A stretch of DNA of 64,000 nucleotides from Ignavibacteriota bacterium (GTDB lineage Bacteria > Bacteroidota > Ignavibacteria > UBA10030), in the NCBI GenBank assembly GCA_963727825.1, contig CAVSHO010000011.1:32001-96000 (forward strand). The letters run 5' to 3'. Position numbers and translations under genes: made by a program. The first letter of the stretch is position 1; every line of letters begins with the position of its first letter. Positions 42,414-53,437 of this stretch are shown one piece after another. Below the pieces are notes generated by a model. That model did no database searches. It saw only the letters and a list, made by a program, of their open reading frames with translations, and was not told the DNA's origin.

Positions 42414-43127
42414 ATGTACAGTGAGTCTACTGTTTTTGGAACTCAAAAATTAAAGAGCAAAATTGTCAAGCAGATTTCGCATGAATTTCGTACGCCTCTT
42501 ACTTCCATAATTGGCTTCGCCGAGATGCTCGAGGAAGATATCCAGATTAACGAAAATCAGCGGATAGAATATGCAAGTTATATCCGGAACGAGGGGCTGC
42601 GGCTGACAAAACTTGTTGACGACCTTGTCGGACTTGATTCTCTTGAGCAAGGACAGGTTCACCTTCAATTGGAAGAATCTGAAATTCAGGAAACAGTACG
42701 GTATGCCGCAAAGTTTGTCGTGGAACAAGCACTTAATAAGTGCATCCACCTTTCTATCGAGATGCCAGACGAACCTATCCTTCTAAACATTGACCGTGAA
42801 AGAATCGTTCATGCTTTATATCAGTTACTCCATAATGCCGTTCGATTCACAAAACCTTGTGGCCTTATAAATCTAAAAGTAGAAGCGGCCGACAAGTTTG
42901 CTATAATCTCCATCCATGATGATGGTCCTGGTATTCCGGAAAAAGATATACCATTTCTATTTACAAGATTTGGAAAGCTCTACCGTTCAGGCGAAGAAAC
43001 GCATGGCAGCGGAGTTGGACTCGCAATCGTAAAACATATTATTGATCAGCATAACGGCGATATCGCTGTACAAAGCAAAGTCGGAGAAGGTTCAACCTTC
43101 ACAATACAAATTCCGATTACTTTATGA
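42414..43127 (+). CDS. Cytoplasmic histidine kinase (HisKA + HATPase, no sensor domain)
   Basis: SHEFRTPLTSI H-box, LLHNAVRF, DDGPGI, GSGVGLAIVK; start chosen at MYSES after AGGGGG. Confidence 0.88.
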   Translation: MYSESTVFGTQKLKSKIVKQISHEFRTPLTSIIGFAEMLEEDIQINENQRIEYASYIRNEGLRLTKLVDDLVGLDSLEQGQVHLQLEESEIQETVRYAAKFVVEQALNKCIHLSIEMPDEPILLNIDRERIVHALYQLLHNAVRFTKPCGLINLKVEAADKFAIISIHDDGPGIPEKDIPFLFTRFGKLYRSGEETHGSGVGLAIVKHIIDQHNGDIAVQSKVGEGSTFTIQIPITL

Positions 43128-43277
43128 TGATCTGTAAATAATGACGAAATGCGACCGCTTCATTATCATTAATACTTAATGCAAATGAAATATTGAAGCA
43201 GATTAAAGCTATGATCAATAAAAGAATATTTAGCGTTCCCATCTTTATAATGTCTTCCCTCGATTATTGAATTTACT

Positions 43278-43305
43278 GCCTAACGAATTGTACTAAGCTG
43301 CCACA
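43278..43305 (-). other. Orphan attC right half (L'/R')
   Basis: GCCTAACGAATTGTACTAAGCTGCC matches the array's attC ends, e.g. GCCTAACGAATGGCAACTAAGCTGCC at 49537. Confidence 0.55.
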
Positions 43306-43593
43306 GTACAAATTTTCGACATGCAATATCCGAAACAAACTCATCTGCGAAGATGCCGTTTATTATTTTCTTCTCTTTGAGGACTCTATTTGCTCAGCTA
43401 CTATTAAAATAGGAACTTACAGAGTGACTATTTTGTCATAACATTGATAGAAGTATTTATTGCTAACAGATATAAGAAGATTCAATGACTACCAAATCAC
43501 ATTCCTCCACTTGAATTTAGAGTTTGAAACAGGTAAAATGCTTTAACAAAAAAACTTTCTATTGAAATCAAACTCTGATTTAAGGGATTCCTG

Positions 43594-46224
43594 ATGAACA
43601 TTTCTCCATCTAATATTCTTCCAAAACTCTTTCCGACTGTATTGAAACAACAGACAGTAAAGATTCAAGTTTCTCCACTTCTCATAGAATCTTCAGCAAG
43701 TAGTGTAGAACCTCTCCTCGCTCGTTTTAGTACTTCACTTTCAGGTATTTCTAGTGAACGAGCTGCACAACTGCTTGAACAGCATGGGCCAAATGTTATT
43801 GCCGGTGAACAATCGCATAGCTGGCTGAGACTTTTGAGAAATGCGGTCCTGAACCCGCTTGTGATTCTTCTTGCAGTCATTGGAGTTGTAGCATTTCTGA
43901 CCCAGGATTACGATACAGCGGTGATAATTTCACTGATGGTTGTGTTAGGGCTGGTCCTGCGGTTCGTTCAGGAATATCGAGCAGATATCGCTGCCGCCAA
44001 ACTTAGGGCGATGATACATGTAACAACAACATTAGTACGCGATGGTGTTGAACAAGAAGTTCCCATCTCACGCGTCGTACCAGGCGATATCGTCAAACTT
44101 GCGGCAGGAGACATTATCCCTGCCGATATTCGCCTTCTGTCGTGCAAGGATCTTTTTATTATGCAGAGCAGTTTGACGGGCGAATCGCTGCCAGTCGAAA
44201 AGTTTGATGCTCCAGTAAATGGCGCCGATCACTCGCCGTTGGAACTTCACAATCTCTGTTTCCTTGGCACGAGTGTTGAGAGCGGCTCTGCAACTGCTGT
44301 CGTAATAACGACAGGGTTCAACACCTATCTCGGCAGCATGGCCAAATCAATTACTGAACAGCAACCGCCAACTAGTTTCGATAAAGGCATCCAGAGCTTT
44401 ACGTGGCTTATGATCCGCTTCATGTTCGTGATGGTACCTCTTGTATTTCTGATCAACGGACTCACGAAAGGGAACTGGCACGAAGCTTTCTTCTTTGCCC
44501 TCGCTGTTGCGGTCGGACTCACACCAGAGATGCTTCCGATGATTGTCACAGTCTGTCTTTCCAAAGGCGCAATTGCAATGTCGAAGAAGAAGGTGATCAT
44601 CAAAAGATTGCACTCCATCCAAAACTTAGGCGCTATGGACATTCTATGTACGGACAAGACCGGAACATTGACTATCGATCATGTGCTTCTTGAGCAGTAT
44701 TGTGATGTGGTTCGCAAGAAAGATGAAGAAATTCTAATGATGGCATATCTCAACAGTCACTTTCAGACCGGACTACGCAATGTATTGGATCGAGCTATCC
44801 TTCAGCATAATGAAATAGTTGAGCGAGTGCATATTCAAGAATATCGGAAAATAGATGAAATTCCTTTCGACTTCTCGCGAAAAGTTATGTCGGTTGTTGT
44901 GGAAATGCCTGATGGTGTGTATCGTATGATCACCAAAGGTGCTCCTGAAGAAATTTTCAAACGCTGCACACATTTTGAGCTTGACGGCGACGTTGATCCG
45001 ATCGAGCCAATTCTAATTCAGGATTTGAAAGAAGAATACGAGCGCTTAAGCGCAGATGGATTTCGGGTGTTAGCCCTTGCGTACAAAGATCTTGATAAGA
45101 AATCAGCTTATGCGAAAGATGATGAGAGCAATATGATTCTCCATGGCTATCTCGCTTTCCTTGATCCGCCAAAAGAAACTGCCGCACCAGCCATTAAAGC
45201 ATTGCAGGCACATGGTGTTACGGTTAAAGTTCTGACTGGAGATAACGAACTCGTCACGCATAAAATATGCCAGGTCGTTGGACTGAATGCCGAACATATG
45301 ATGCTCGGAAGCGAAGTGGAACATCTGAGCGATGATGAACTGGCTATCAAGGCGGAACAAACGACGATCTTCGCTCGGCTATCTCCTGCACACAAACAGC
45401 GCGTTGTGCGAGCACTTCGGAACAATGGCCATACCGTCGGATATATGGGAGACGGCATCAACGATGCACCGGCGCTTCGCGCTGCGGATATCGGCATCTC
45501 GGTAGATTCGGCGGTCGATATTGCAAAAGAGTCAGCCGATGCGATCCTCCTTGAAAAAAGCTTGATGGTTTTAGAAGAAGGCGTGCTGGAAGGACGTAAG
45601 GTCTTTGCAAACATTCTTAAGTATATTCGAATGGGAGCAAGCTCAAATTTTGGAAATATGTTCAGCGTCCTAGGCGCAAGCATTTTTCTTCCGTATTTGC
45701 CTATGTTACCGGTTCAGATCCTTACCAACAATTTGCTTTATGATTTCTCGCAGACACCGATTCCGACTGACGAGGTCGACGCCGATCAGGTCGCAAAGCC
45801 TCGTCCGTGGGCAATCGGCAACCTTACCAGATTTATTCTCTTTGTCGGGCCTATCAGTTCGATCTTCGATTATACGACGTTTTTCATCATGCTTTATGTA
45901 TTCAATTGTTGGAACCCCGCACATGCATCATTGTTTCAAACTGGTTGGTTTGTCGAGTCGCTCCTTACACAGACGCTCATTATTCATATCATCCGAACCA
46001 ATAAAATTCCGTTTTTACAAAGTCGTGCAAGCTGGCCGTTATTGGCAATGACAGCTGTTGTGATGATGATCGGAATGTGGCTTCCATTCGCACCATTTGC
46101 AGGCGCACTAAACCTTACGCCCCTGCCTCCGCTATATTGGCCGTTAATCGCTCTTACATTGGTCAGCTACATTTTCCTAACACAATTCGTCAAGCAATGG
46201 CTTTTAAAGATGACCTGGATATGA
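43594..46224 (+). CDS. mgtA: Magnesium-translocating P-type ATPase
   Basis: LTGESLPVEK, AVGLTPEMLPMIV, DKTGTLT, DEIPFDF, GDGINDAPAL, ASSNFGNMFS, FQTGWFVES. Confidence 0.93.
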   Translation: MNISPSNILPKLFPTVLKQQTVKIQVSPLLIESSASSVEPLLARFSTSLSGISSERAAQLLEQHGPNVIAGEQSHSWLRLLRNAVLNPLVILLAVIGVVAFLTQDYDTAVIISLMVVLGLVLRFVQEYRADIAAAKLRAMIHVTTTLVRDGVEQEVPISRVVPGDIVKLAAGDIIPADIRLLSCKDLFIMQSSLTGESLPVEKFDAPVNGADHSPLELHNLCFLGTSVESGSATAVVITTGFNTYLGSMAKSITEQQPPTSFDKGIQSFTWLMIRFMFVMVPLVFLINGLTKGNWHEAFFFALAVAVGLTPEMLPMIVTVCLSKGAIAMSKKKVIIKRLHSIQNLGAMDILCTDKTGTLTIDHVLLEQYCDVVRKKDEEILMMAYLNSHFQTGLRNVLDRAILQHNEIVERVHIQEYRKIDEIPFDFSRKVMSVVVEMPDGVYRMITKGAPEEIFKRCTHFELDGDVDPIEPILIQDLKEEYERLSADGFRVLALAYKDLDKKSAYAKDDESNMILHGYLAFLDPPKETAAPAIKALQAHGVTVKVLTGDNELVTHKICQVVGLNAEHMMLGSEVEHLSDDELAIKAEQTTIFARLSPAHKQRVVRALRNNGHTVGYMGDGINDAPALRAADIGISVDSAVDIAKESADAILLEKSLMVLEEGVLEGRKVFANILKYIRMGASSNFGNMFSVLGASIFLPYLPMLPVQILTNNLLYDFSQTPIPTDEVDADQVAKPRPWAIGNLTRFILFVGPISSIFDYTTFFIMLYVFNCWNPAHASLFQTGWFVESLLTQTLIIHIIRTNKIPFLQSRASWPLLAMTAVVMMIGMWLPFAPFAGALNLTPLPPLYWPLIALTLVSYIFLTQFVKQWLLKMTWI

Positions 46225-46514
46225 AATAGGTTTGCAACATCAATACATATTTCATTATTATTCAATAGGAAGGAAATGAAGAGGCGTTTTTAGCGGGCTA
46301 CATATAACAAAAAGATGGACTACACTCCATCATTGGCAAATGATAGAAATGTTAATACCTTTCTCGCAAATAGGGAAGGAATTTAACTCCTGGCAAATGA
46401 ACATAGGATCCACTCCCCTGCTCACAAATCCCAGCGAGCATAGCGGTAAAAAAAGGCTTAAGAATATTTGTAGATAGGATTGCATACAATAGAGGGGCAA
46501 CAAAAAAGGCATCT

Positions 46515-46536
46515 GGTTCAAGTCCCGCCCCCGCTA
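46515..46536 (+). other. 3' fragment of a tRNA (initiator Met-like); possible att-site scar
   Basis: GGTTCAAGTCCCGCCCCCGCTA matches T-loop plus 3' acceptor strand; no 5' half of a tRNA upstream. Confidence 0.55.
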
Positions 46537-46551
46537 ATTAGTCCCAAGAAG

Positions 46552-46586
46552 AATCCTCATTAAATTAATTTGGTGAGGATTTTTTT
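46552..46586 (+). terminator. Intrinsic terminator (possibly bidirectional)
   Basis: AATCCTCA...TGAGGATT followed by a T tract. Confidence 0.6.
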
Positions 46587-46733
46587 GTCTATGGGCAAAA
46601 CTTTGATGTGTTTTTATTGTTTTTGATACCGGTGCTCATCCGGTAATCTTGCCTACCTGCCGTCTTTTGGACGGGAGCGCCTCAGTTAAGTGTTTTTGGT
46701 AATAATCTTTTGCAAGTATCGTTGTCTTGTATT

Positions 46734-47579
46734 TTATCGGGTGTTATGTTCTTTGTTCCAGTCATTTAGAACCTTAATCATATGAGGAAGCAATTCTATT
46801 CCTCCTTCTTTACCGTGACCAGGAATTACAATGCGACAATCTTGAAATCTATTCATTACTTTTTCAACAGAAACTGGCCATTCAGCCATATTCGCATATC
46901 CGATAAAACCGGGGTTATTATGCTCCAACCCTTTTATCATACAGCCTCCAAACAGAATCTTTCGCTTATGAAAATAAACAACCGTGTTATCTATTGTGTG
47001 AGATTCTCCCGGAAAGTATACTTCAAAAACCTCGTCTCCAAATTTCAATTCTAAGCCTTCTTTGATAGGAAAAGTTTTATTTGGCGGCATCAAATTTAGC
47101 TCCTTGTAAGAATTGAAGTAACGCTTATTCTCACTAGAAGAAACTGAATTCAAAATGACCTTTTTTAATTCTACACCCTTTTCTTTTATAAGTTTCACTG
47201 TTAAATCAGGACCATATACCGGGATGTTCTTGGAAAACAAAACTTCATCGCCTCCAAGGTTATCCTGATGAAAACCAGTAACAATTGCCATTAATTTAAG
47301 CGACCCAAAACTCTTTTCAATCCAGTGCAGTAACGAGTCAGTACCGGTTCTTTCGCAAGGTGTGTTAATAAGTAATCCTTGCGAGTCAGGCAAAAGAATA
47401 AACATTCCATTAGAACCCCAGGGAAAATAATGAGTAAATATATAGACACTATCTTGAATTTTAGTATAATACAAATCCTCACTTATCTTGATTTGATTCT
47501 TTTTGGGGTCAGATTGGCAATAACTATTTACTCCATACAGCAATACGATAAGGAGAATAAGAATTTTATTCTTTCGCAA
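46734..47579 (-). CDS. Subclass B1-like metallo-beta-lactamase with Gly at the His116 position (cassette)
   Basis: Signal peptide; SNG..LLINTP; TGFHQDNLGG (G-x-H-x-D); FPGESHTIDN; LFGGCMIK; VIPGHG. Confidence 0.85.
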   Translation of the reverse strand: MRKNKILILLIVLLYGVNSYCQSDPKKNQIKISEDLYYTKIQDSVYIFTHYFPWGSNGMFILLPDSQGLLINTPCERTGTDSLLHWIEKSFGSLKLMAIVTGFHQDNLGGDEVLFSKNIPVYGPDLTVKLIKEKGVELKKVILNSVSSSENKRYFNSYKELNLMPPNKTFPIKEGLELKFGDEVFEVYFPGESHTIDNTVVYFHKRKILFGGCMIKGLEHNNPGFIGYANMAEWPVSVEKVMNRFQDCRIVIPGHGKEGGIELLPHMIKVLNDWNKEHNTR

Positions 47580-47645
47580 GTTGAGTCCTTTTATAATTTA
47601 TACCTGTTTGTCATATTTATAATAATTGCTAACCCTAGTAAAAAC

Positions 47646-47879
47646 GCCTAACGAATCGGCGCTAAGTCCCGATTCGACAGATTTGATGTTTTCTAATCAA
47701 ATCGTGGTCGAATCGCGGATCCCGCTTTGCGGGATCTAAAATTTTTACCACGTTGAAAACTTTCAAATTATTGAAAACGAAATAAGTTCCACGTAGAAAG
47801 TTTTATTATTTGTACCAGACCTTTACTCGCAATGAATTTTGCGCTAAGCTATTGTGTCAGATAGAGCGACTAGTTAGGT
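47646..47879 (-). other. attC site (~234 bp) with nested hairpins
   Basis: Minus strand ACCTAAC-TAGTCGCTCTATCTGAC ... CTTAGCGCCGATTC-GTTAGGC. Confidence 0.75.
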
Positions 47880-47897
47880 TACGGGGTGATATCTGTT

Positions 47898-48473
47898 TTA
47901 AAAAATAAACGGTATTAATGCCGAAACACGCCGTGAATATGTTGCATACGTTTCCCCGAATTGTGCTCGCATCAATTTTTCCTCAAGCCTCAATTTGTAG
48001 AATAGCACAGCGAATACTAATACGACAGCAACTAATCCACGCCACTTACCGATTGCGACTGCTGTACCAAATAATGCAAATAAAAGTCCTGTATAAATCG
48101 GATGACGTACAAAAGCATACGGTCCACTTGTCACCAACTGATGATCTTGCTTAATTGTAACAGCCTGGCTCCAATTAGTTCCTAAATGATTTCGTGCCCA
48201 GATAGAAAATAATAGACCGTTCGCTGTAAAAATCACACCAATCCAAAAGCTAGTAAAACCCGAAGGGACAAAGCGCTCATCAAGAATATCAAATGGAATA
48301 TTTTGTAAGACGAGCAATACTATTGCAGAAATCATCGCAATGAGCCGTACGATACGTGATTGCGCAGATTCGCGTACCTGTTCCGTTTGCTTGACATTAT
48401 TTGCCTTTATCCACCAATAGATTTGATAAGCTAACCAGAGTATTACAATTAGAGAATAGTAAATTATCTTCAT
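47898..48473 (-). CDS. Isoprenylcysteine carboxyl methyltransferase (ICMT/Ste14-like) membrane protein (cassette)
   Basis: LGTNWS, HQLVTSGPYAFVRHPIYTG, EEKLM..FGETY; start reset to MKII because the longer ORF begins inside the attC. Confidence 0.88.
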   Translation of the reverse strand: MKIIYYSLIVILWLAYQIYWWIKANNVKQTEQVRESAQSRIVRLIAMISAIVLLVLQNIPFDILDERFVPSGFTSFWIGVIFTANGLLFSIWARNHLGTNWSQAVTIKQDHQLVTSGPYAFVRHPIYTGLLFALFGTAVAIGKWRGLVAVVLVFAVLFYKLRLEEKLMRAQFGETYATYSRRVSALIPFIF

Positions 48474-48487
48474 TGCTTTTTCCCGAG

Positions 48488-48650
48488 CCCTAACGGTTGG
48501 CAACTAAGCTGCCGCGTTGATAACTTTCAAATTGTATTAAACGAACCAAGTTCATTCACTTCACTAAACCTTTGAATGTAATGCAAAATGCACCCACGCC
48601 TGCCTGCCGGCAGGCAGGCTCGTTTGGTCAGGTTGAGCCGATGGTTAGGC
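48488..48650 (-). other. attC site (163 bp)
   Basis: Minus strand GCCTAAC-CATCGG-CTCAACCTGAC ... GCAGCTTAG-TTGCCAACC-GTTAGGG; contains the palindrome GCCTGCCTGCCGGCAGGCAGGC (48598-48619). Confidence 0.85.
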
Positions 48651-48660
48651 AATATTAATT

Positions 48661-49506
48661 TTACAATAATACTCCAAACCCGACGGAAAGCGTTGTGTAC
48701 GTGACATTAATATTGATGTTATTGCCGCTAGCTGAACCGCCAAATGACTTATATAACCACTCAATGAATATTTTATTGATTTCTAATCTTAGACCACCGG
48801 CGATATATAAACCACCGCTCAAATTGTATGGACCGCTATAAAATGAATCTCCATTGAATATTACATCATAACCAACATTTGCGATAATAATCGGGATGAC
48901 TTTTTCTTCTTGACTTGTTAGTTTAATTTTTACGACCTCATAAAGAGGAACATAATTGAATTTACCGCCTCCTCTTACATCTAGTCCTCGAGGATTGAGA
49001 TACATAATACCAAAAGCATAATTAAACACATTATCATTTATTTCCCCATACTCAAGCGCGAAAGATATTCCAGTCATTACATCTATAGAGCCGGATTGGC
49101 CCATAGCACTCGCTTTGTTACTTCCCGCTAAGTCAGCGCATACCTTTAGGGATACTCTTGCTGCAGATGTTTCCTTGGTTTTTGATGGAGATATATTATT
49201 AATCGGTTGAACAGAATAAATCATTGATTTATTTATTGTTATAAATCCAAGATTAGATTGATATGTCGCAGTAGAATCATTTGCTGAAATAAATTCTCCT
49301 TCAAAAGAATTTCCATTTAAAAGCTTAACTAGAATCATTTGCTTTGCTTGAAGAGAATCCTTTTTTTGTATAGATATAGTTTCTGAAGAATCTTTCTTTG
49401 ACATATCACTATAGTGTAAATAGTTATTAGCGGTATCAATTTGAGCAGAAGTTAATTGACAAACCATCAATAACAATCCTACAAACAACGTAATTCCTTT
49501 CATCAT
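48661..49506 (-). CDS. Secreted/outer-membrane beta-barrel hypothetical protein (cassette)
   Basis: Signal peptide, small VKLLNGNSFEG domain, amphipathic C-terminal strands; GGAGGAG RBS. Confidence 0.7.
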   Translation of the reverse strand: MMKGITLFVGLLLMVCQLTSAQIDTANNYLHYSDMSKKDSSETISIQKKDSLQAKQMILVKLLNGNSFEGEFISANDSTATYQSNLGFITINKSMIYSVQPINNISPSKTKETSAARVSLKVCADLAGSNKASAMGQSGSIDVMTGISFALEYGEINDNVFNYAFGIMYLNPRGLDVRGGGKFNYVPLYEVVKIKLTSQEEKVIPIIIANVGYDVIFNGDSFYSGPYNLSGGLYIAGGLRLEINKIFIEWLYKSFGGSASGNNININVTYTTLSVGFGVLL

Positions 49507-49536
49507 CTCCTCCAATGAATTGATTTAATTAATGTT

Positions 49537-49734
49537 GCCTAACGAATGGCAACTAAGCTGCCGCGTTGAATAGTTTCGTGATGCACCCAAGGAAACAAGT
49601 TCACGCTACCGATAGAATTATTAAACATCAAACCTCTAAACGCAATGTTGATTGCTCCCACGCCTGCCTGCCGGCAGGCAGGCTCATTCGGTCAGCTTGT
49701 CCGAGGGACTCCTTCTGAGAGCCGCAGGTTAGAA
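49537..49734 (-). other. attC site (198 bp) with an insertion in the L'' box
   Basis: Plus strand GCCTAAC...CTAAGCTGCCGCGTTGA ... GTCAGCTTG[TCCGAGGGACTCCTTCTGA]GAGCCGCAG-GTTAGAA; palindrome at 49662-49683. Confidence 0.8.
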
Positions 49735-49759
49735 CACACGCTGTAGGTCTATTATTATT

Positions 49760-50596
49760 TTAATCAATGCTATAATCTCCAGGTTGAGGCAATTTATTAC
49801 GTAGCTTCCAGAATATAACCGCAATTACTATTGAGAAAACACATAATCCAAGACCCATTTCCGTGAGGAAATAACTTTTGCCTCCTTTTTCGATTAGGAA
49901 TTGATCAAATACATTTTGAATAAAGAAATTATGACTCGCATGATAAAATAATCCTACCCACAAACTTCCTGATTTTATCCTCAACCAAGTCAACATAAAG
50001 CTAATTGAAACCAATGATATTGTACTAATTACTATTTTAAAAATAGAAAAACCACCTCCATAATTGGTCATTATCATTAAGGGAATATGCCATATTATCC
50101 AAATAGCACCAATTACAAATGATGTTGTTGTCATATTGGTTAGTTTATATAATCTTGGGGTAAGGAAACCTCGCCATCCAACTTCTTCTCCAAAAGAACC
50201 AATAGCTCTTAATAAAAGTCCAATAATGCAGAAAAGAAGAAAATCCACGCTTATAGGTAAGTTAGAACCTAATCCAATTTTGAAATGCTCTTTGACACTC
50301 CCGATTTTGGTTATCCATGCAAAACCATATATAACAATACCATAAATAATTGGTATTAAAAGAGAAAGAAACAAATACTTACCTTTTCCCAATTTCCATC
50401 CTAACTTGTTTATTTTCCGATCAGATATTAGCCTTGTGATTAAAGCGGCTAAGAAAGGGCTATAAACCAGGAGCAATGTAACTGCACTGTCTTCAACGTT
50501 TGGTCCAGTACTTTGAGAAATTAGGATATAACTTAATCCACTAAAGATTATTAATAAAGTTAAAAAAATAAATATTTCCTTTTTCGTTTTTTCCAT
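49760..50596 (-). CDS. CPBP (CAAX/Abi) family intramembrane metalloprotease (cassette)
   Basis: GEEVGWRGFL, WIIWHIP, YHASHN. Confidence 0.9.
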   Translation of the reverse strand: MEKTKKEIFIFLTLLIIFSGLSYILISQSTGPNVEDSAVTLLLVYSPFLAALITRLISDRKINKLGWKLGKGKYLFLSLLIPIIYGIVIYGFAWITKIGSVKEHFKIGLGSNLPISVDFLLFCIIGLLLRAIGSFGEEVGWRGFLTPRLYKLTNMTTTSFVIGAIWIIWHIPLMIMTNYGGGFSIFKIVISTISLVSISFMLTWLRIKSGSLWVGLFYHASHNFFIQNVFDQFLIEKGGKSYFLTEMGLGLCVFSIVIAVIFWKLRNKLPQPGDYSID

Positions 50597-50688
50597 TATT
50601 TCTCCATAAGACGATTTGGATGTCCTAAGTACAAGATACTTTTCATCTTACAAATAACTTTGTAATGGCACCAAAATTTATTCGTCTG

Positions 50689-50864
50689 TTCTAACGAACG
50701 GGCACTAAGCTGACGCATTGATAACTTTCAAATTATACTAAACGAAACAAGATCATTGAACATTGAACACTCGCACCCCGATAAATCGGGGCGCTTCGGG
50801 AAAGTATTATTTACTTGTCCGAAGGACCCCTACGGGGACTCTTTCCTTTTTAAAATGGTTAGCT
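50689..50864 (-). other. attC site (176 bp), left arm degenerate
   Basis: Plus strand TTCTAACGAACGGGCACTAAGCTG ... AAATG-GTTAGCT; two internal micro-hairpins. Confidence 0.7.
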
Positions 50865-50923
50865 TGCAAACAGATGACGTATTTTGTGATTTAATTATTA
50901 ACTTATCTTTGTAAAGCTAGTGT

Positions 50924-51521
50924 TTATGAAACCTTTTGTGTTAAAAAGAACCTGAAAAAGCCACCATACCATTGTCTTCTCGCCAGTATTTTAAGTCCAG
51001 CTTGTTGAATTCCCATCTCGAACTCTGCCCACTCAAACATTTTGTGCGGCTCTTCTATGAGCATGACTCCATCAGAAACAAGTACCTGGTACAGCCTCTT
51101 CCAAAGTCTTTCGCCAAAGAGGAATATGATGTAGAACACCGAAATCAAAAACTGCATTGCAACTAGAATCTGGTGCATTCATAGCGTTTGCATCACCTAC
51201 CATAAAATCAACATTAAGTCCACATCTTTTTGCAAGTTCAATTTGTTCTGGCATAATATCAAATGCAATGACTTGCGATGGTTTCAATTCCTTAATAATT
51301 AACTCAGTGCCAAATCCAGAGCCGCAGCCCATGTCCATTATAACTTTTCCGGACAAATTAATTTTATGCATTTGAAGCATTTTAAAAAATAACGGAAATT
51401 CCTGATGTTTCCATCGCCATCGTCTAAGAGGGTTATTCATTGCTAAGAATTCAAATCTACCTAAACGAATACTTTCTTTTGAATCTTCCATACCATATTT
51501 CCACTTTATATTGTTTTTCAT
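50924..51521 (-). pseudogene. Class I SAM-dependent methyltransferase with a frameshift near 51095 (cassette)
   Basis: MDMGCGSGFG, FDFGVLHHIP in ORF 51072..51521; continuation LYQVLVSDGVMLIEE in ORF 50924..51178. Confidence 0.8.
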
Positions 51522-51672
51522 TAAAATGGTTCGCTAAAAATTAATGAAGAACAATATAATCGCCCATTATTTATCGGCAAAGCTCGAGATATTGTCGGTA
51601 AATATCGAATTATTTGCAGATTCTTTAAATGGCCACTTTCAAAAATTAAAAGAACAATGGTTTTTACTGTGC

Positions 51673-51853
51673 ACCTAACGGACAGGCGCTCCGCCCAAAA
51701 GATGGCGGACAAGTAAGCTGCTGCGTTGAATAATTTTCAAGTTACACTCAACAAACTGAGTTCATTGAACACTCGCATCTGAAAAACTATATTTACTTGT
51801 TGAGCTTGCGAAATCCCGCTTGCGGGGACTTTTTCCTTTTTAAATGGTTAGGT
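51673..51853 (-). other. attC site (181 bp) with inserted hairpins
   Basis: Plus strand ACCTAACGGACAGGCGCT[CCGCCCAAAAGATGGCGG]...TAAGCTGCTGCGTTGA ... AAATG-GTTAGGT; backbone similar to 50689-50864. Confidence 0.7.
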
Positions 51854-51883
51854 AGCACAAATAATTATTCATTTATGTCCGGG

Positions 51884-52681
51884 CTATTTGTATCCATAAA
51901 TCTGAGCTTGCCTTGGAAACGTATAATTCGTGGCGCGCCTGAATTTTGAGTTCTGCAAATTAGTTAACATTCGTTTTGCATCCTGTTTGCTCACTATGCC
52001 AGACTTCATTACAGCAGGTGCAATTTCTGATGCACTCATCATAACGAAGTCTATCGCCTCAGCCATTGAAATGACTGGCTGAACAAAGCAAGCATGAATA
52101 TTGGAATACCCTGCCGATATCAATGTCGAATATAATTTGTCACCAATATTGAAATCGAGACCCTGAAGTTTTCCAAGTTTAACAAATAACTCATTCATCC
52201 TTTCGATGGATTCATTACGAGGTGTCGTCATCAAGGAACTTGCATGAGGTTCTTCGCAAGCAATGACACCACCAGCTCGCAAATATCTTTTTAGGCTGAT
52301 TAGCACTTGCTTCGGATCCTTCAAGTGCATTAATAATAATCTGGAATAGATTAGATTAATAGAATTGTCTGGCAAATCTAACGCCTCTACCGTTGAGAAA
52401 ATGAATTCAATATTTGCAGCCCCCGATTCTTCTGCGGCTTTTCTGGCTAATTCAAGTTGCTTTTCACTGGCGTCGACTGCCATAATGTGACCTTTTATGC
52501 CAACTTGTTTCGAAAGCCACGTTGTCATCGATCCTATGCCACATCCAACCTCCAGAATTTTAATACCCTCTCTTAACCCGGCTCGGATGAGAAAATTTCT
52601 ACTGTGCTCACCAAATACTTCATTTATAAATTTGAGTCGGTTAAATCCTTTTTTCCCGACCTCCAAGATATATTCACCCAT
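51884..52681 (-). CDS. Class I SAM-dependent methyltransferase (cassette)
   Basis: ILEVGCGIG, AVDAS, SRLLLMHL, LRAGGVIACEE. Confidence 0.9.
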   Translation of the reverse strand: MGEYILEVGKKGFNRLKFINEVFGEHSRNFLIRAGLREGIKILEVGCGIGSMTTWLSKQVGIKGHIMAVDASEKQLELARKAAEESGAANIEFIFSTVEALDLPDNSINLIYSRLLLMHLKDPKQVLISLKRYLRAGGVIACEEPHASSLMTTPRNESIERMNELFVKLGKLQGLDFNIGDKLYSTLISAGYSNIHACFVQPVISMAEAIDFVMMSASEIAPAVMKSGIVSKQDAKRMLTNLQNSKFRRATNYTFPRQAQIYGYK

Positions 52682-52692
52682 TATGTTCTCTT

Positions 52693-53226
52693 TTATTTTG
52701 TGCTACCTAACGATTGGCGGCTAAGCTGCTGCATGGCAATAGCTTTAACACGATCGCAATTTCGTCGAACGAACCAATCAGCAAGTAATGGACGGTATTC
52801 ATGTTGCAAATCTTCGGGCAGAAGAAAGAAGTCGCCAGAAACTTCTTTGCGACACCGTTTTGATCCACAATTACATAGCCAAGATGTACCGCCCGTGATA
52901 TTGATATTGTAATCAATTGTGATCTCTTCTCCCGCAGAGATGGCTCGACGAGCAACAAGATATGATTTTTTTCCTTTGAATAATTGATAGGAGTTCGGAT
53001 CGCAACAGTGGTTGACATGTCGATCTGGGAATCCTAACAGTAACACTTTACCATCGGGATAGTCACAGTGGTCAATTCGCTCGCCAAGCTCCTCTCGAAG
53101 AGGGGAATCAGACGTAATTTCTCGAATAACATTGACACAGCTGATGCGCTCACCGATATAAAACGAACGCACCGCGAATATTCCCAAACCTTCAATTGAA
53201 GAAGTCTTAACTTCAATATTGTTCAT
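52693..53226 (-). CDS. SET domain protein whose C-terminus reads through a half attC
   Basis: GLGIFA, VNHCCDPN, GEEITIDY, post-SET CNCGSKRCR. Confidence 0.88.
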   Translation of the reverse strand: MNNIEVKTSSIEGLGIFAVRSFYIGERISCVNVIREITSDSPLREELGERIDHCDYPDGKVLLLGFPDRHVNHCCDPNSYQLFKGKKSYLVARRAISAGEEITIDYNINITGGTSWLCNCGSKRCRKEVSGDFFLLPEDLQHEYRPLLADWFVRRNCDRVKAIAMQQLSRQSLGSTK

Positions 53227-53261
53227 ACTAAAATGTAATTAGCTAAATGCAATTGGGCACG

Positions 53262-53437
53262 GCCTATCCGATCGGAACTAAGTGAAACATGGCGCTTTGC
53301 GACACTGCGGCGCTGATAATTTTCCAATTTTACAGCTGTCGCGCGTGACATCTAACCTAAATTCATAGGCTAAACTTTCTTTGCACGGTTAATTGCACCC
53401 GCGTTTTTCCCGTTTGCTTGAATACTTCGATATTACC
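53262..53437 (-). other. Degenerate attC-like element
   Basis: GCCTATCCGATCGGAACTAAG (core AAC changed to ATC) plus the shared interior motif GCGCTGATAATTTTCCAATT. Confidence 0.4.

Follow-up and report, generated by a model that had tools for sequence, protein, structure and literature searches.

A putative SPS-1-like, His116-less subclass B1 metallo-beta-lactamase gene on a partly degraded integron cassette of an Ignavibacteriota bacterium

The window, i.e., the whole 64,000-nucleotide stretch of Ignavibacteriota DNA analyzed here, contains on its minus strand an open reading frame (46734-47579) that encodes a 281-aa protein and starts with TTG, this start codon being ATG in the two closest loci (L009 and L010). 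The gene stands at the end of an integrase-less attC cluster. The rest of this cluster (47880..53282, minus strand) comprises cassettes encoding a PEMT/ICMT methyltransferase, an unknown 284-aa protein, a CAAX/Rce1-like protease, two SAM methyltransferases, and a SET-domain protein, with an attC site of 160-200 nt behind each of them, as judged from the repeat families D1-D6, Pfam, and matches to the attC 3' module at 48557, 49607, 50756, 51765, and 52777. The attC site of the preceding, PEMT/ICMT-like methyltransferase cassette (47646..47879, minus strand), delimited by repeats, core sites, locus comparison, and folding, ends in the R' core GTTAGGC (47652-47646), which lies 67 nt upstream of the start codon and forms the left boundary of the metallo-beta-lactamase (MBL) cassette. 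Between this core and the gene lies the 5' untranslated region of the cassette (47580..47645, minus strand), which is conserved with L009 and L010 in blastn and sequence comparisons. On the other side of the gene, an accessory block with a P-type ATPase (MgtA-like) (43439..46260, plus strand; Pfam), whose homology to another copy is limited to these same positions, separates the remnant of the MBL cassette attC from an orphan attC 3' module (43278..43344, minus strand; attC HMM) that ends in GTTAGGC and lacks a 5' half, at the far end of the cluster. The ATPase block and a tRNA-Met fragment occupy the stretch after the cassette; scans of the window for tRNA/tmRNA genes and Rfam families returned 0 genes and 0 families.

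The 281-aa protein scored 188.5 bits (E 1.2e-55) against the NCBIfam bla_subclass_B1 model, which does not reach the equivalog cut-off of 200 of NF033088, an annotation threshold and no biochemical criterion, and its Pfam Lactamase_B score of 13.2 bits is under the cut-off of 22.7. It matched 56 NCBIfam families, the best 25 of which were all B1 (25/25), and the PDB sequences among the matches listed were B1 enzymes in 60/60 cases with the single protein and the family profile as queries. The best PDB sequence match was SPS-1 (6CQS; E 8.6e-55, 189 bits, 37% identity), followed by SPM-1 (144 bits), and the family profile gave 245 bits for SPS-1 and 187 bits for SPM-1. The AlphaFold model (mean pLDDT 94.0) has the alpha-beta/beta-alpha MBL fold, and its top Foldseek match was again 6CQS (target-normalised TM 0.95, rmsd 1.3 A, 37% identity) among at least 500 PDB matches, all those listed at the top being B1 enzymes. 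Together with the ligand columns and dN/dS values given below, these results identify the gene product as a probable secreted subclass-B1-type metallo-beta-lactamase of the SPS-1-like, His116-less lineage. A preliminary description of this DNA had proposed a B1-like enzyme, and a different kind of MBL-fold hydrolase can be set aside, since the NCBIfam and PDB matches listed were all B1.

The sequence G102-F-H-Q-D106 (47262-47276, minus strand; BBL 116-120) stands in place of H-x-H-x-D, with Gly for the Zn1 ligand His116 and with His118 and Asp120 kept, as seen in the translation, in the DNA, and in the alignment of the top 120 homologues (A1). The His116-His118-His196 set is incomplete, having Gly102 at position 116 with His104 (118) and His194 (196) present, whereas the Zn2 set is complete, with Asp106 (120), Cys213 (221), and His255 (263). 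The His196 equivalent belongs to E-S-H194-T (His codon 46998-47000), the Cys221 equivalent to G-G-C213 (Cys codon 46941-46943), and the His263 equivalent to P-G-H255-G (His codon 46815-46817), so the motif and the three intact ligands of the preliminary description could all be read in both translation and DNA. In alignment A1, Gly116, His118, and Asp120 were each found in 119/119 filled cells, His196 and Cys221 in 120/120, and His263 in 119/120. Since Gly occupies position 116 throughout A1 and also in 78/80 species-genome loci, Gly116 is a trait of the lineage and no lesion. The dN/dS values of 0.087, 0.098, and 0.114 against L009, L010, and L013, respectively, show that purifying selection acts on the lineage, these values being a lineage average.

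The parallel with SPS-1, given in the preliminary description as an active enzyme with Gly at 116, is borne out by the bioRxiv report on that enzyme (10.1101/336024), where SPS-1 is described as binding about two Zn, hydrolyzing carbapenems, and holding the Zn1 water by means of Thr187 and Asn192, and is kept in the B1 class despite Gly116. The window protein has a second-shell pair matching these two residues, i.e., Ser193 and Asn198, Ser for Thr being conservative; in A1 the residue before His196 is Ser in 109/120 and Thr in 11/120 rows, and the Asn is kept in 119/120. The Asn233 equivalent is Phe or Tyr in the family (Phe in the window protein), and the Lys224 equivalent, which is Lys in the window protein, is kept in 51/120 relatives, and because of these two positions substrate binding may differ from that of SPS-1.

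Residues 1-21 (47517..47579, minus strand) form a predicted signal peptide, as had been supposed, consisting of the basic n-region MRKNK, a hydrophobic core, and S-Y-C|Q, with predicted signal-peptidase-I cleavage at C21|Q22. Since position 21 is A/S/C/G in A1 and Q22 is kept in 103/120 rows, this sequence points to a signal-peptidase-I site rather than to a lipobox. The long insertion noticed after the Asp120 region was likewise found: the protein covers 239 residues against the 214 positions of the NCBIfam B1 model, and residues 125-159 (47103..47207, minus strand) contain two long model helices (125-145 and 149-159). Alignment across this central insertion is colinear with SPS-1 and SPM-1 only, VIM, GIM, and other B1 enzymes matching in two stretches. 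The comparison with the insertion of SPM-1 is sound, and the SPS-1 report (10.1101/336024) describes extended alpha3/alpha4 helices shared by SPS-1 and SPM-1.

Close relatives (47-100% identity) make up at least 120 clusters in public data, and 247 species-representative genomes contain a relative. With VIM-1, GIM-1, KHM-1, and IMP-1 as the outgroup of a tree, the 79 family rows formed one clade (SH-aLRT 99) in which two His116 rows branch first; the 77 Gly116 rows group together (SH-aLRT 85, in a tree without the SPS-1 sequence), and the window protein falls within a 21-row Bacteroidota/Ignavibacteriota subclade (SH-aLRT 99). The lineage extends over 8 labelled phyla, with 14 label changes in the tree versus 42.4 in shuffles, and its hosts are uncultured bacteria of peat, sediment, and anaerobic-digester type. 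A search of PLSDB (72,556 plasmids) yielded no close relative, as 0/774 matching records reach 60% identity. The His116-less B1 lineage has already been published (Berglund 2017; Cheng 2018; Marathe 2019; a 2026 Commun Biol paper), and thus, of the earlier proposal of a possibly new carbapenemase-family gene, the family assignment stands and the newness has to be toned down, given this literature, the at least 120 clusters, and the 247 genomes; that it is a carbapenemase we infer from the 37% identity to SPS-1, which is the one Gly116 enzyme so far characterised. The literature consulted names two to three genes of the lineage, which is in fact much larger and covers a wider range of taxa. Its Gly116 enzymes break the H-x-H-x-D rule used by motif-based screens and, according to the SPS-1 report, fail to bind captopril-type zinc-bridging inhibitors. 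An SPS-like enzyme on a chromosomal integron was not found in this literature, where a close relative could be catalogued among the genes listed by Berglund 2017 or in figure S2 of Marathe 2019. We regard the gene as genuine and as a mostly foreseeable addition to an enzyme lineage that is already known, its chromosomal-integron context being the modestly new part.

These data also bear on whether the protein is a beta-lactamase in function, or rather a non-antibiotic MBL-fold enzyme acting on another ester or amide substrate in anaerobes, with weak or incidental beta-lactamase activity. The scores under the curated B1 and Pfam cut-offs, the varying substrate-contact positions at the Lys224 and Asn233 equivalents, and the mostly phylum-wise distribution over 8 phyla, which resembles that of a long-standing accessory enzyme of housekeeping type more than that of a resistance gene of recent date, agree with such a role, as do the high Km values given for SPS-1 itself in its report. 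However, every near relative of known function is a beta-lactamase in the NCBIfam, PDB, and family-profile matches, the B1 Zn2 triad including Cys221 is invariant or nearly so, the predicted periplasmic export fits a cell-wall antibiotic target, and for SPS-1, whose site is the same, the report gives turnover rates of about 470-520 per second with imipenem and meropenem, so we consider a non-antibiotic role unlikely.

Concerning the genetic context, a second core-like heptamer, ACTTAAC (46691-46685, minus strand), lies 42 nt past the stop codon. It agrees with the upstream core, read as its inverse, at 5/7 positions, so the gene does have core sites on both sides, as the preliminary description had it, but these match only approximately. 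In blastn comparisons, the 8 closest loci showed homology only within 47667..46673. This homology starts at 47653 with L009 and at 47667 with L010, i.e., 1-15 nt from the GTTAGGC core, and with both loci it ends 3-61 nt past the stop codon, the flanks being unshared. Both L009 and L010 have core sites on either side of the gene and a full attC. The R''/L'' stretch of the window aligns with L010 GCCTAAC-CAGGCGCTCC, the R'' sequences ACTTAAC and GCCTAAC differing at 2 positions, and the homology with the intact L010 attC runs to 46673. What remains after the gene is the 5' half of its own attC (46625..46691, minus strand), with R'' ACTTAAC, L'' GGCGCTCC (46681-46674), and a hairpin module, the part beyond 46673 being assigned by resemblance only; the 3' half is missing, and an HMM of the attC 3' module found none after the MBL gene as far as 43344. 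Both the cassette-borne nature of the gene and the truncation of its own attC, as first described, are upheld by these comparisons and by the attC modules around its relatives, and the MBL gene is a partly degraded integron gene cassette.

The attC calls rest on repeats and on the comparison of loci. The 3'-module HMM, built from 19 sites of the window's own contig, which match by construction, gave 45 matches in the genome, 21 of them at C11:1-27173 and 6 in the window's cluster. The 21 modules lie beside an integron integrase (TIGR02249, C11:29893-30834; 447.9 bits versus a cut-off of 265), which is about 48 kb from the MBL gene, and the attC sites of the window's cluster are of the same type as those of this array. 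The same HMM detected 7 sites around L010, one directly upstream of the gene, 1 just after L009, and 3 upstream of L015; the same cassette is thus found in different contexts, since the window, L009, L010, and L015 have attC modules nearby and unshared flanks. The attC type of the window was found in only 3/80 loci in a search for this type. None of the 80 loci has the MgtA-like neighbour of the window, and the window has no neighbour proteins in common with L009 and L010. Within the genus, the distribution is patchy, with a close ortholog of the MBL in only 6/16 genomes and of the MgtA-like ATPase in only 2/16. As the neighbouring tricorn-like protease has no close ortholog in 21 genomes (G000 and 20 relatives; best 37%), there is no empty-site comparison. 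No RNA run is listed as containing this DNA, and four DNA runs from one study gave only short low-depth contigs, none of which covers 46552-46645 or bridges the attC-remnant junction. The upstream core is crossed by a single contig of 151 nt (X4), which extends over 47540-47690.

In minimum-energy DNA structures computed with ViennaRNA, the top strand of the 47646..47879 attC brings its ACCTAAC and GTTAGGC ends together. Pairing of the R''/R' ends was seen in 3/5 window attC sites for the top strand and in 2 for the bottom strand, with a third partly paired, and in 0/2 for the attC sites of L009 and L010. Other attC assignments were considered. A split site, made of 46691-46625 and the orphan module 43344-43278 with a 3.3-kb insertion, is unsupported, as nothing in the orphan module (TTAGTACAA) is complementary to L'' GGCGCTCC. 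A 311-nt candidate closing on GTTAAAT at 46387 has unpaired ends in the fold and no 3' module, and was rejected as a product of chance. Finally, a heuristic combining core sites and an L-box helix gave 4 candidates, all false, and missed the real sites.

No convincing sigma-70-type promoter was found upstream of the gene (7 sites versus 5.2 expected) and, since the integron promoter is also far away, this copy may be poorly expressed. The 67-nt leader conserved with L009 and L010 could hold a Bacteroidota-type promoter, outside the reach of the sigma-70 scan. This copy could accordingly be pictured as a silent, promoterless relic, stranded at the end of a decayed array and headed for loss, a view that draws on the TTG start where relatives have ATG, the truncated attC with its R'' changed at 2 positions, the distant integrase and promoter region, the scan result, and the ATPase block and tRNA-Met fragment in place of what followed the cassette. 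The intact frame with all ligands present, the conserved leader, and the low dN/dS against three orthologs, which as a lineage average does not suggest relaxed constraint, speak against it, and we find it very unlikely. That an ordinary chromosomal gene merely lies next to an attC cluster with core-like heptamers arisen by chance is extremely improbable, because, although the downstream heptamer is imperfect, no attC 3' half follows the gene, L011-L014 and L016 show no clear core sites by eye, and the family tree mostly tracks phyla, the homology with L009 and L010 starts and stops at the cassette limits with no shared flanks or neighbour proteins, both copies adjoin attC modules, the R''/L'' stretch aligns with the L010 attC, and the gene is patchy in the genus.

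The reading that we prefer, and hold to be highly probable as a whole, is that of a periplasmic, Sec-exported, His116-less B1 lactamase on an integron cassette with a truncated attC. By analogy with the SPS-1 crystal structure, the enzyme would bind two zinc ions, one held by Asp120, Cys221, and His263 (Zn2) and the other by His118, His196, and a water filling the Gly116 space (Zn1). The backbone at 117 and the Asn at the fourth position past His196 would hold this water in place, and the residue immediately preceding His196 carries a hydroxyl (Ser in the window protein, Thr in SPS-1). The pair of long helices that covers the active site should limit the substrates, and the expected activity would be on carbapenems and some cephalosporins, rather than on bulky penicillins. 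The gene is the last cassette of the integrase-less attC cluster, its copy here probably no longer excisable as a unit for want of the 3' half of its recombination site; related genomes keep the same cassette with a complete attC.

One branch of the lineage is on integron cassettes, and integrons carried IMP and VIM into pathogens; for this reason, a reservoir of a carbapenemase-family gene in chromosomal integrons deserves to be noted in surveillance. The risk at present seems low, since the recombination site is broken and there is no close relative among 72,556 plasmids. A broader proposal, which we put forward tentatively and think somewhat doubtful, is that a His116-less B1 branch circulates as integron cassettes between uncultured Ignavibacteria-like bacteria living in habitats of the freshwater-sediment and soil type. 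If true, carbapenemase-family cassettes would have a natural reservoir in the sedentary chromosomal integrons of Bacteroidota/Ignavibacteriota, with intact examples in L009 and L010 and a decayed one in the window, and a B1-family cassette would for the first time have been traced to the chromosomal integron of an environmental host.

Among known systems, SPS-1 from Sediminispirochaeta smaragdinae (PDB 6CQS; group B1-5 of Berglund 2017; Cheng 2018) is the best sequence, profile, and fold match, sharing Gly116 with His118, Asp120, His196, Cys221, and His263, the neighbours of His196 (a hydroxyl residue in front, Asn at the fourth position behind), and the two long helices that cover the active site. 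It differs in its 37% identity, in having Thr where the window protein has Ser before His196, in having Asn in the 233 region where the window protein has Phe, and in its host, a spirochaete instead of an Ignavibacteria-like bacterium; the integron cassette context of the window gene is not described for SPS-1 in the available part of its report (10.1101/336024). SPM-1 from Pseudomonas aeruginosa (PDB 2FHX, 4BP0), the second-best match (144 bits, target-normalised TM 0.93), shares the central helical insertion and a short beta-hairpin loop, but it has the canonical His116 and 32-33% identity. SPM-1 owes its mobility to an ISCR element, not to an integron. The IMP, VIM, and GIM genes, in turn, are B1 genes borne as single-ORF cassettes bounded by core sites in class 1 integrons, VIM-1 and GIM-1 adjoining intI1 in plasmid records. 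They have the canonical His116, are 30-33% identical to the window protein, form the outgroup in the tree, and reside on conjugative plasmids of pathogens, whereas the window array is chromosomal and integrase-less, with attC sites 160-230 nt long and that of the MBL copy broken. In organization, the cluster is like CALIN (attC clusters that lack an integron integrase) and sedentary chromosomal integrons, in the IntegronFinder sense (PMC9024848), with small ORFs on the same strand, each followed by a related attC, and no adjacent intI; according to that paper, a CALIN has about 6 attC sites and Ignavibacteriae possess complete integrons, and the genome studied here likewise contains a complete one, of at least 21 attC modules. 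The window cluster differs from them in its attC sites, which are longer than the usual range, have nested hairpin modules, and were called here by repeats and HMM, and in its interruption by the opposite-strand ATPase block.

The open reading frame at 46734..47579 on the minus strand encodes a metallo-beta-lactamase (MBL) of 281 aa and starts with TTG, whereas the two closest loci found in other genomes (L009 and L010) have ATG at this position. Its translation contains the motifs T-G-F-H-Q-D-N-L-G-G, P-G-E-S-H-T, F-G-G-C-M-I-K, and I-P-G-H-G. The preliminary description had read G-F-H-Q-D in place of H-x-H-x-D, together with ESHT, GGC, and PGHG, and this reading was recovered in the translation and in the minus-strand codons compared with the DNA (Gly102..Asp106, 47262-47276; His194, 46998-47000; Cys213, 46941-46943; His255, 46815-46817). 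The N-terminus is, as also proposed there, a classical signal peptide, whose cleavage-site columns are conserved: in the best 120 of 465 relatives, position 21 is A, S, C, or G, and 103 have Gln at position 22, which points to a predicted cleavage by signal peptidase I before Gln22 and not to a lipoprotein. The Bacteroidota group favours Gln at position +1 of signal-peptidase cleavage.

The Pfam Lactamase_B model barely detected the protein (13.2 bits vs a cut-off of 22.7), and the NCBIfam subclass B1 model scored 188.5 bits (E 1.2e-55), slightly below its cut-off of 200. The suggested comparison with B1 families gave a uniform answer, since all the NCBIfam families among the matches listed (25 of 56) are B1, with SPM as the top named family, and so are 60/60 PDB sequences among the matches listed in a family-profile search, where SPS-1 reached 245 bits and SPM-1 187 bits. 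With the single protein, the top PDB sequence match was 6cqs_A (E 8.6e-55, 189 bits), which Foldseek identifies as SPS-1 from Sediminispirochaeta smaragdinae, followed by SPM-1 (144 bits); B1 enzymes other than these two align only as two pieces. The AlphaFold model (mean pLDDT 94.0, pTM 0.87) superposes on 6cqs with a target-normalised TM of 0.95, an rmsd of 1.3 A, and 37% identity, SPM-1 being second (TM 0.93). The long SPM-1-like insertion noticed after the Asp120 region corresponds in the model to two helices, 125-145 and 149-159, the counterpart of alpha3/alpha4 in SPS-1 and SPM-1 according to bioRxiv 10.1101/336024. The protein is a member of the published non-canonical B1 lineage, 37% identical to SPS-1, and we infer for it a beta-lactamase activity.

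A word-index search gave 465 relatives at E<=0.001, of which the 120 listed, 47-100% identical, were aligned. In this alignment of the best 120 of 465, BBL position 116 is Gly in 119/119 filled cells, and the remaining metal-site columns are His118 (119/119), Asp120 (119/119), His196 (120/120), Cys221 (120/120), and His263 (119/120). A relative is encoded in 247 species-representative genomes, and in the best 80 loci of such genomes position 116 is Gly in 78 and His in 2; Gly116 is thus a trait of the lineage. The residue preceding His196 is Ser in 109 and Thr in 11 of the 120 relatives, and an Asn lies four residues past His196 in 119; their SPS-1 counterparts are Thr187 and Asn192, the residues that keep the Zn1-coordinating water in place (bioRxiv 10.1101/336024). 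With a dN/dS of 0.087-0.114 vs three orthologs, the protein is under purifying selection, and its site is of the SPS-1 type.

The proposed phylogeny was built as a quick maximum-likelihood tree, with SH-aLRT as the only support measure, from 83 rows: the MBL of the window, 78 loci, and the plasmid references VIM-1, GIM-1, KHM-1, and IMP-1, on which it was rooted (SPS-1 is absent from it). The loci L056 and L086 were left out as too short. The 79/79 family rows formed one clade (support 99) apart from these canonical B1 enzymes. The earliest-branching family rows are two with His116, both on long branches, and the 77 Gly116 rows cluster with a support of 85. The loci L082 and L088 encode distant family members (34-37% identity) with the canonical H-x-H-x-D motif; they split off at the root of the Gly116 clade, both are long branches, and they may mark the His-to-Gly transition. 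The MBL of the window falls within a 21-row Bacteroidota/Ignavibacteriota subclade (support 99), with L010 and L009 nearest. Phylum labels are clustered on the tree, with 14 changes observed vs 42.4 in shuffles; the lineage is old and mostly confined within phyla. In one genome, a second, partial copy (L056, residues 13-133 only, 81% identity) sits elsewhere on the chromosome bearing the full copy L013.

The preliminary description had placed the gene between matching cassette cores, and the comparison with other loci supports a cassette. In blastn against the eight closest loci, the shared DNA is limited to 47667..47498 down to 46673..46746, and homology starts at 47653 for L009 and 47667 for L010, right at the GTTAGGC core at 47652-47646. 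Both loci have a core upstream of the MBL copy and a full attC downstream (L010, 6889-7039; L009, 6872-7147). An attC 3'-module HMM, made from 19 modules of the source contig (C11), which match by construction, found seven sites near the L010 copy (one lies immediately upstream of it), one right behind the L009 copy, and three upstream of the L015 copy; this attC type, the only one that the HMM covers, occurs at 3/80 loci. Of 16 genomes of the genus, six have a close ortholog (at least 76% identity), four only a distant B1-type match, and six no match at E<=1e-20. This distribution and these boundaries are those of a mobile cassette. A tblastn search of 72,556 plasmids gave 774 matching records, none reaching 60% identity, the best being VIM (about 33%) and KHM-1 (37%).

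The attC of this copy is indeed truncated, as had been suspected. The stop codon is followed by a 42-nt spacer and then by ACTTAAC-TGA-GGCGCTCC, which aligns with GCCTAAC-CA-GGCGCTCC of L010 and thus carries two substitutions in R''. A hairpin module comes next after this R''/L'' remnant, and the HMM found no conserved 3' module after the gene. By established integron mechanics, a cassette with only half an attC site is not excised by itself, and so this copy could not be excised alone. Between the remnant and an ATPase gene lies a 23-nt copy of a tRNA-Met 3' end (46514-46536, plus strand; source C9:401724-401797, 1 mismatch in 22 nt), which resembles what remains of an integrative element's attachment site; a terminator-like hairpin with a T run (46549-46584) follows it. 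The MgtA-like P-type ATPase block (43439-46260, plus strand, opposite to the MBL) has a G+C of 0.46 vs 0.36-0.40 around it, and a close ortholog of the ATPase is found in 2/16 genomes of the genus. Its DNA is shared with another copy only over 43439-46260 (85.5% identity), stopping at the block's ends, and no such neighbour stands beside the MBL relatives (0/80 loci). The block, too, was acquired. Beyond it, an orphan attC 3' module without a 5' half (43278-43344, minus strand, ending in GTTAGGC) and a 41-aa ORF (43117-43242, minus strand) probably represent the cluster's far, decayed end.

Every small minus-strand ORF from 47.6 to 53.3 kb is followed by repeats with the pattern ..GCAGCTTAG..(5-16 nt)..GTTAGGC. 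The window has six attC 3' modules (HMM; 43344, 48557, 49607, 50756, 51765, and 52777). Inside the window, the cluster is bordered on one side by a gene for a tricorn-like protease and on the other by histidine-kinase and P-type ATPase genes, and no integrase adjoins it; it is therefore an integrase-less attC cluster, and its genome (3.12 Mb, 14 contigs) has a complete integron too. The integrase of the latter is encoded at C11:29893-30834 (plus strand; TIGR02249, 447.9 bits vs a cut-off of 265); ~1.2 kb separate it from the left end of the window, which is C11:32001-96000, and ~48 kb from the MBL gene. The main array, 21 of the 45 HMM sites of the genome, occupies C11:1-27173 on the minus strand, divergent from the integrase, so that C11:1-30834 is a complete integron whose attC 3'-module matches reach the first bases of the contig. 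Since contigs C12 and C6 also have matches at their ends, the array probably extends beyond its assembled part. The remaining sites form smaller clusters, e.g., at C11:97182-100265 and C11:149044-152412, far from the integrase, and scattered on contigs C1 and C9.

At 163-234 nt, the attCs of the window are long, and they contain nested hairpins. When these are folded as DNA at minimum energy, pairing of the R''/R' ends is seen in 3/5 for the top strand and in 2/5, with one more partly, for the bottom strand. The 22-nt perfect palindrome GCCTGCCTGCCGGCAGGCAGGC occurs at 48598-48619 and 49662-49683, within a 70-nt module common to two adjacent attCs (83% identity), and the module at 47647-47725 reappears (87% identity) in the attC following the MBL copy of L009. 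The attCs of this genome appear to be assembled from exchangeable hairpin modules. A SET-domain ORF (52693-53226, minus strand) continues through the attC module at 52706-52777; its domain match covers residues 13-107 only, and the ~70 residues at its end probably come from reading through the recombination site.

The gene had been put forward as a possibly new carbapenemase-family gene. It is a new member, but its enzyme type was already known, because Gly116 enzymes have been published. According to Berglund 2017 (PMC5637372), SPS-1 and G76 are the only two B1 genes with Gly for His116, both grouped with SPM-1 in B1-5, and SPS-1 hydrolyses imipenem. Cheng 2018 (bioRxiv 10.1101/336024) reports that SPS-1 binds about 2 Zn per molecule, with a Zn1 site of two His and a water, has a kcat of about 470-520 per second on carbapenems, is inactive on ampicillin and penicillin G as well as on cefuroxime and cephalexin, and does not bind captopril; the activity of SPS-1 with Gly at 116, mentioned in the preliminary description, is thus documented. 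Marathe 2019 (PMC6598227) adds another Gly116 gene, 1N7, whose closest database relative is a protein of Geosporobacter ferrireducens, the genome of our locus L049. A branch of the SPS-1 lineage on chromosomal-integron cassettes in Ignavibacteria-like bacteria was not found in the literature, supplementary files being outside the search; as far as we found, this cassette context is the unpublished part. The family also differs from SPS-1 in sequence: in the 233 region, Phe or Tyr takes the place of the Asn of SPS-1, and the Lys224 equivalent is variable, being Lys in 51/120 relatives and in the MBL of the window.
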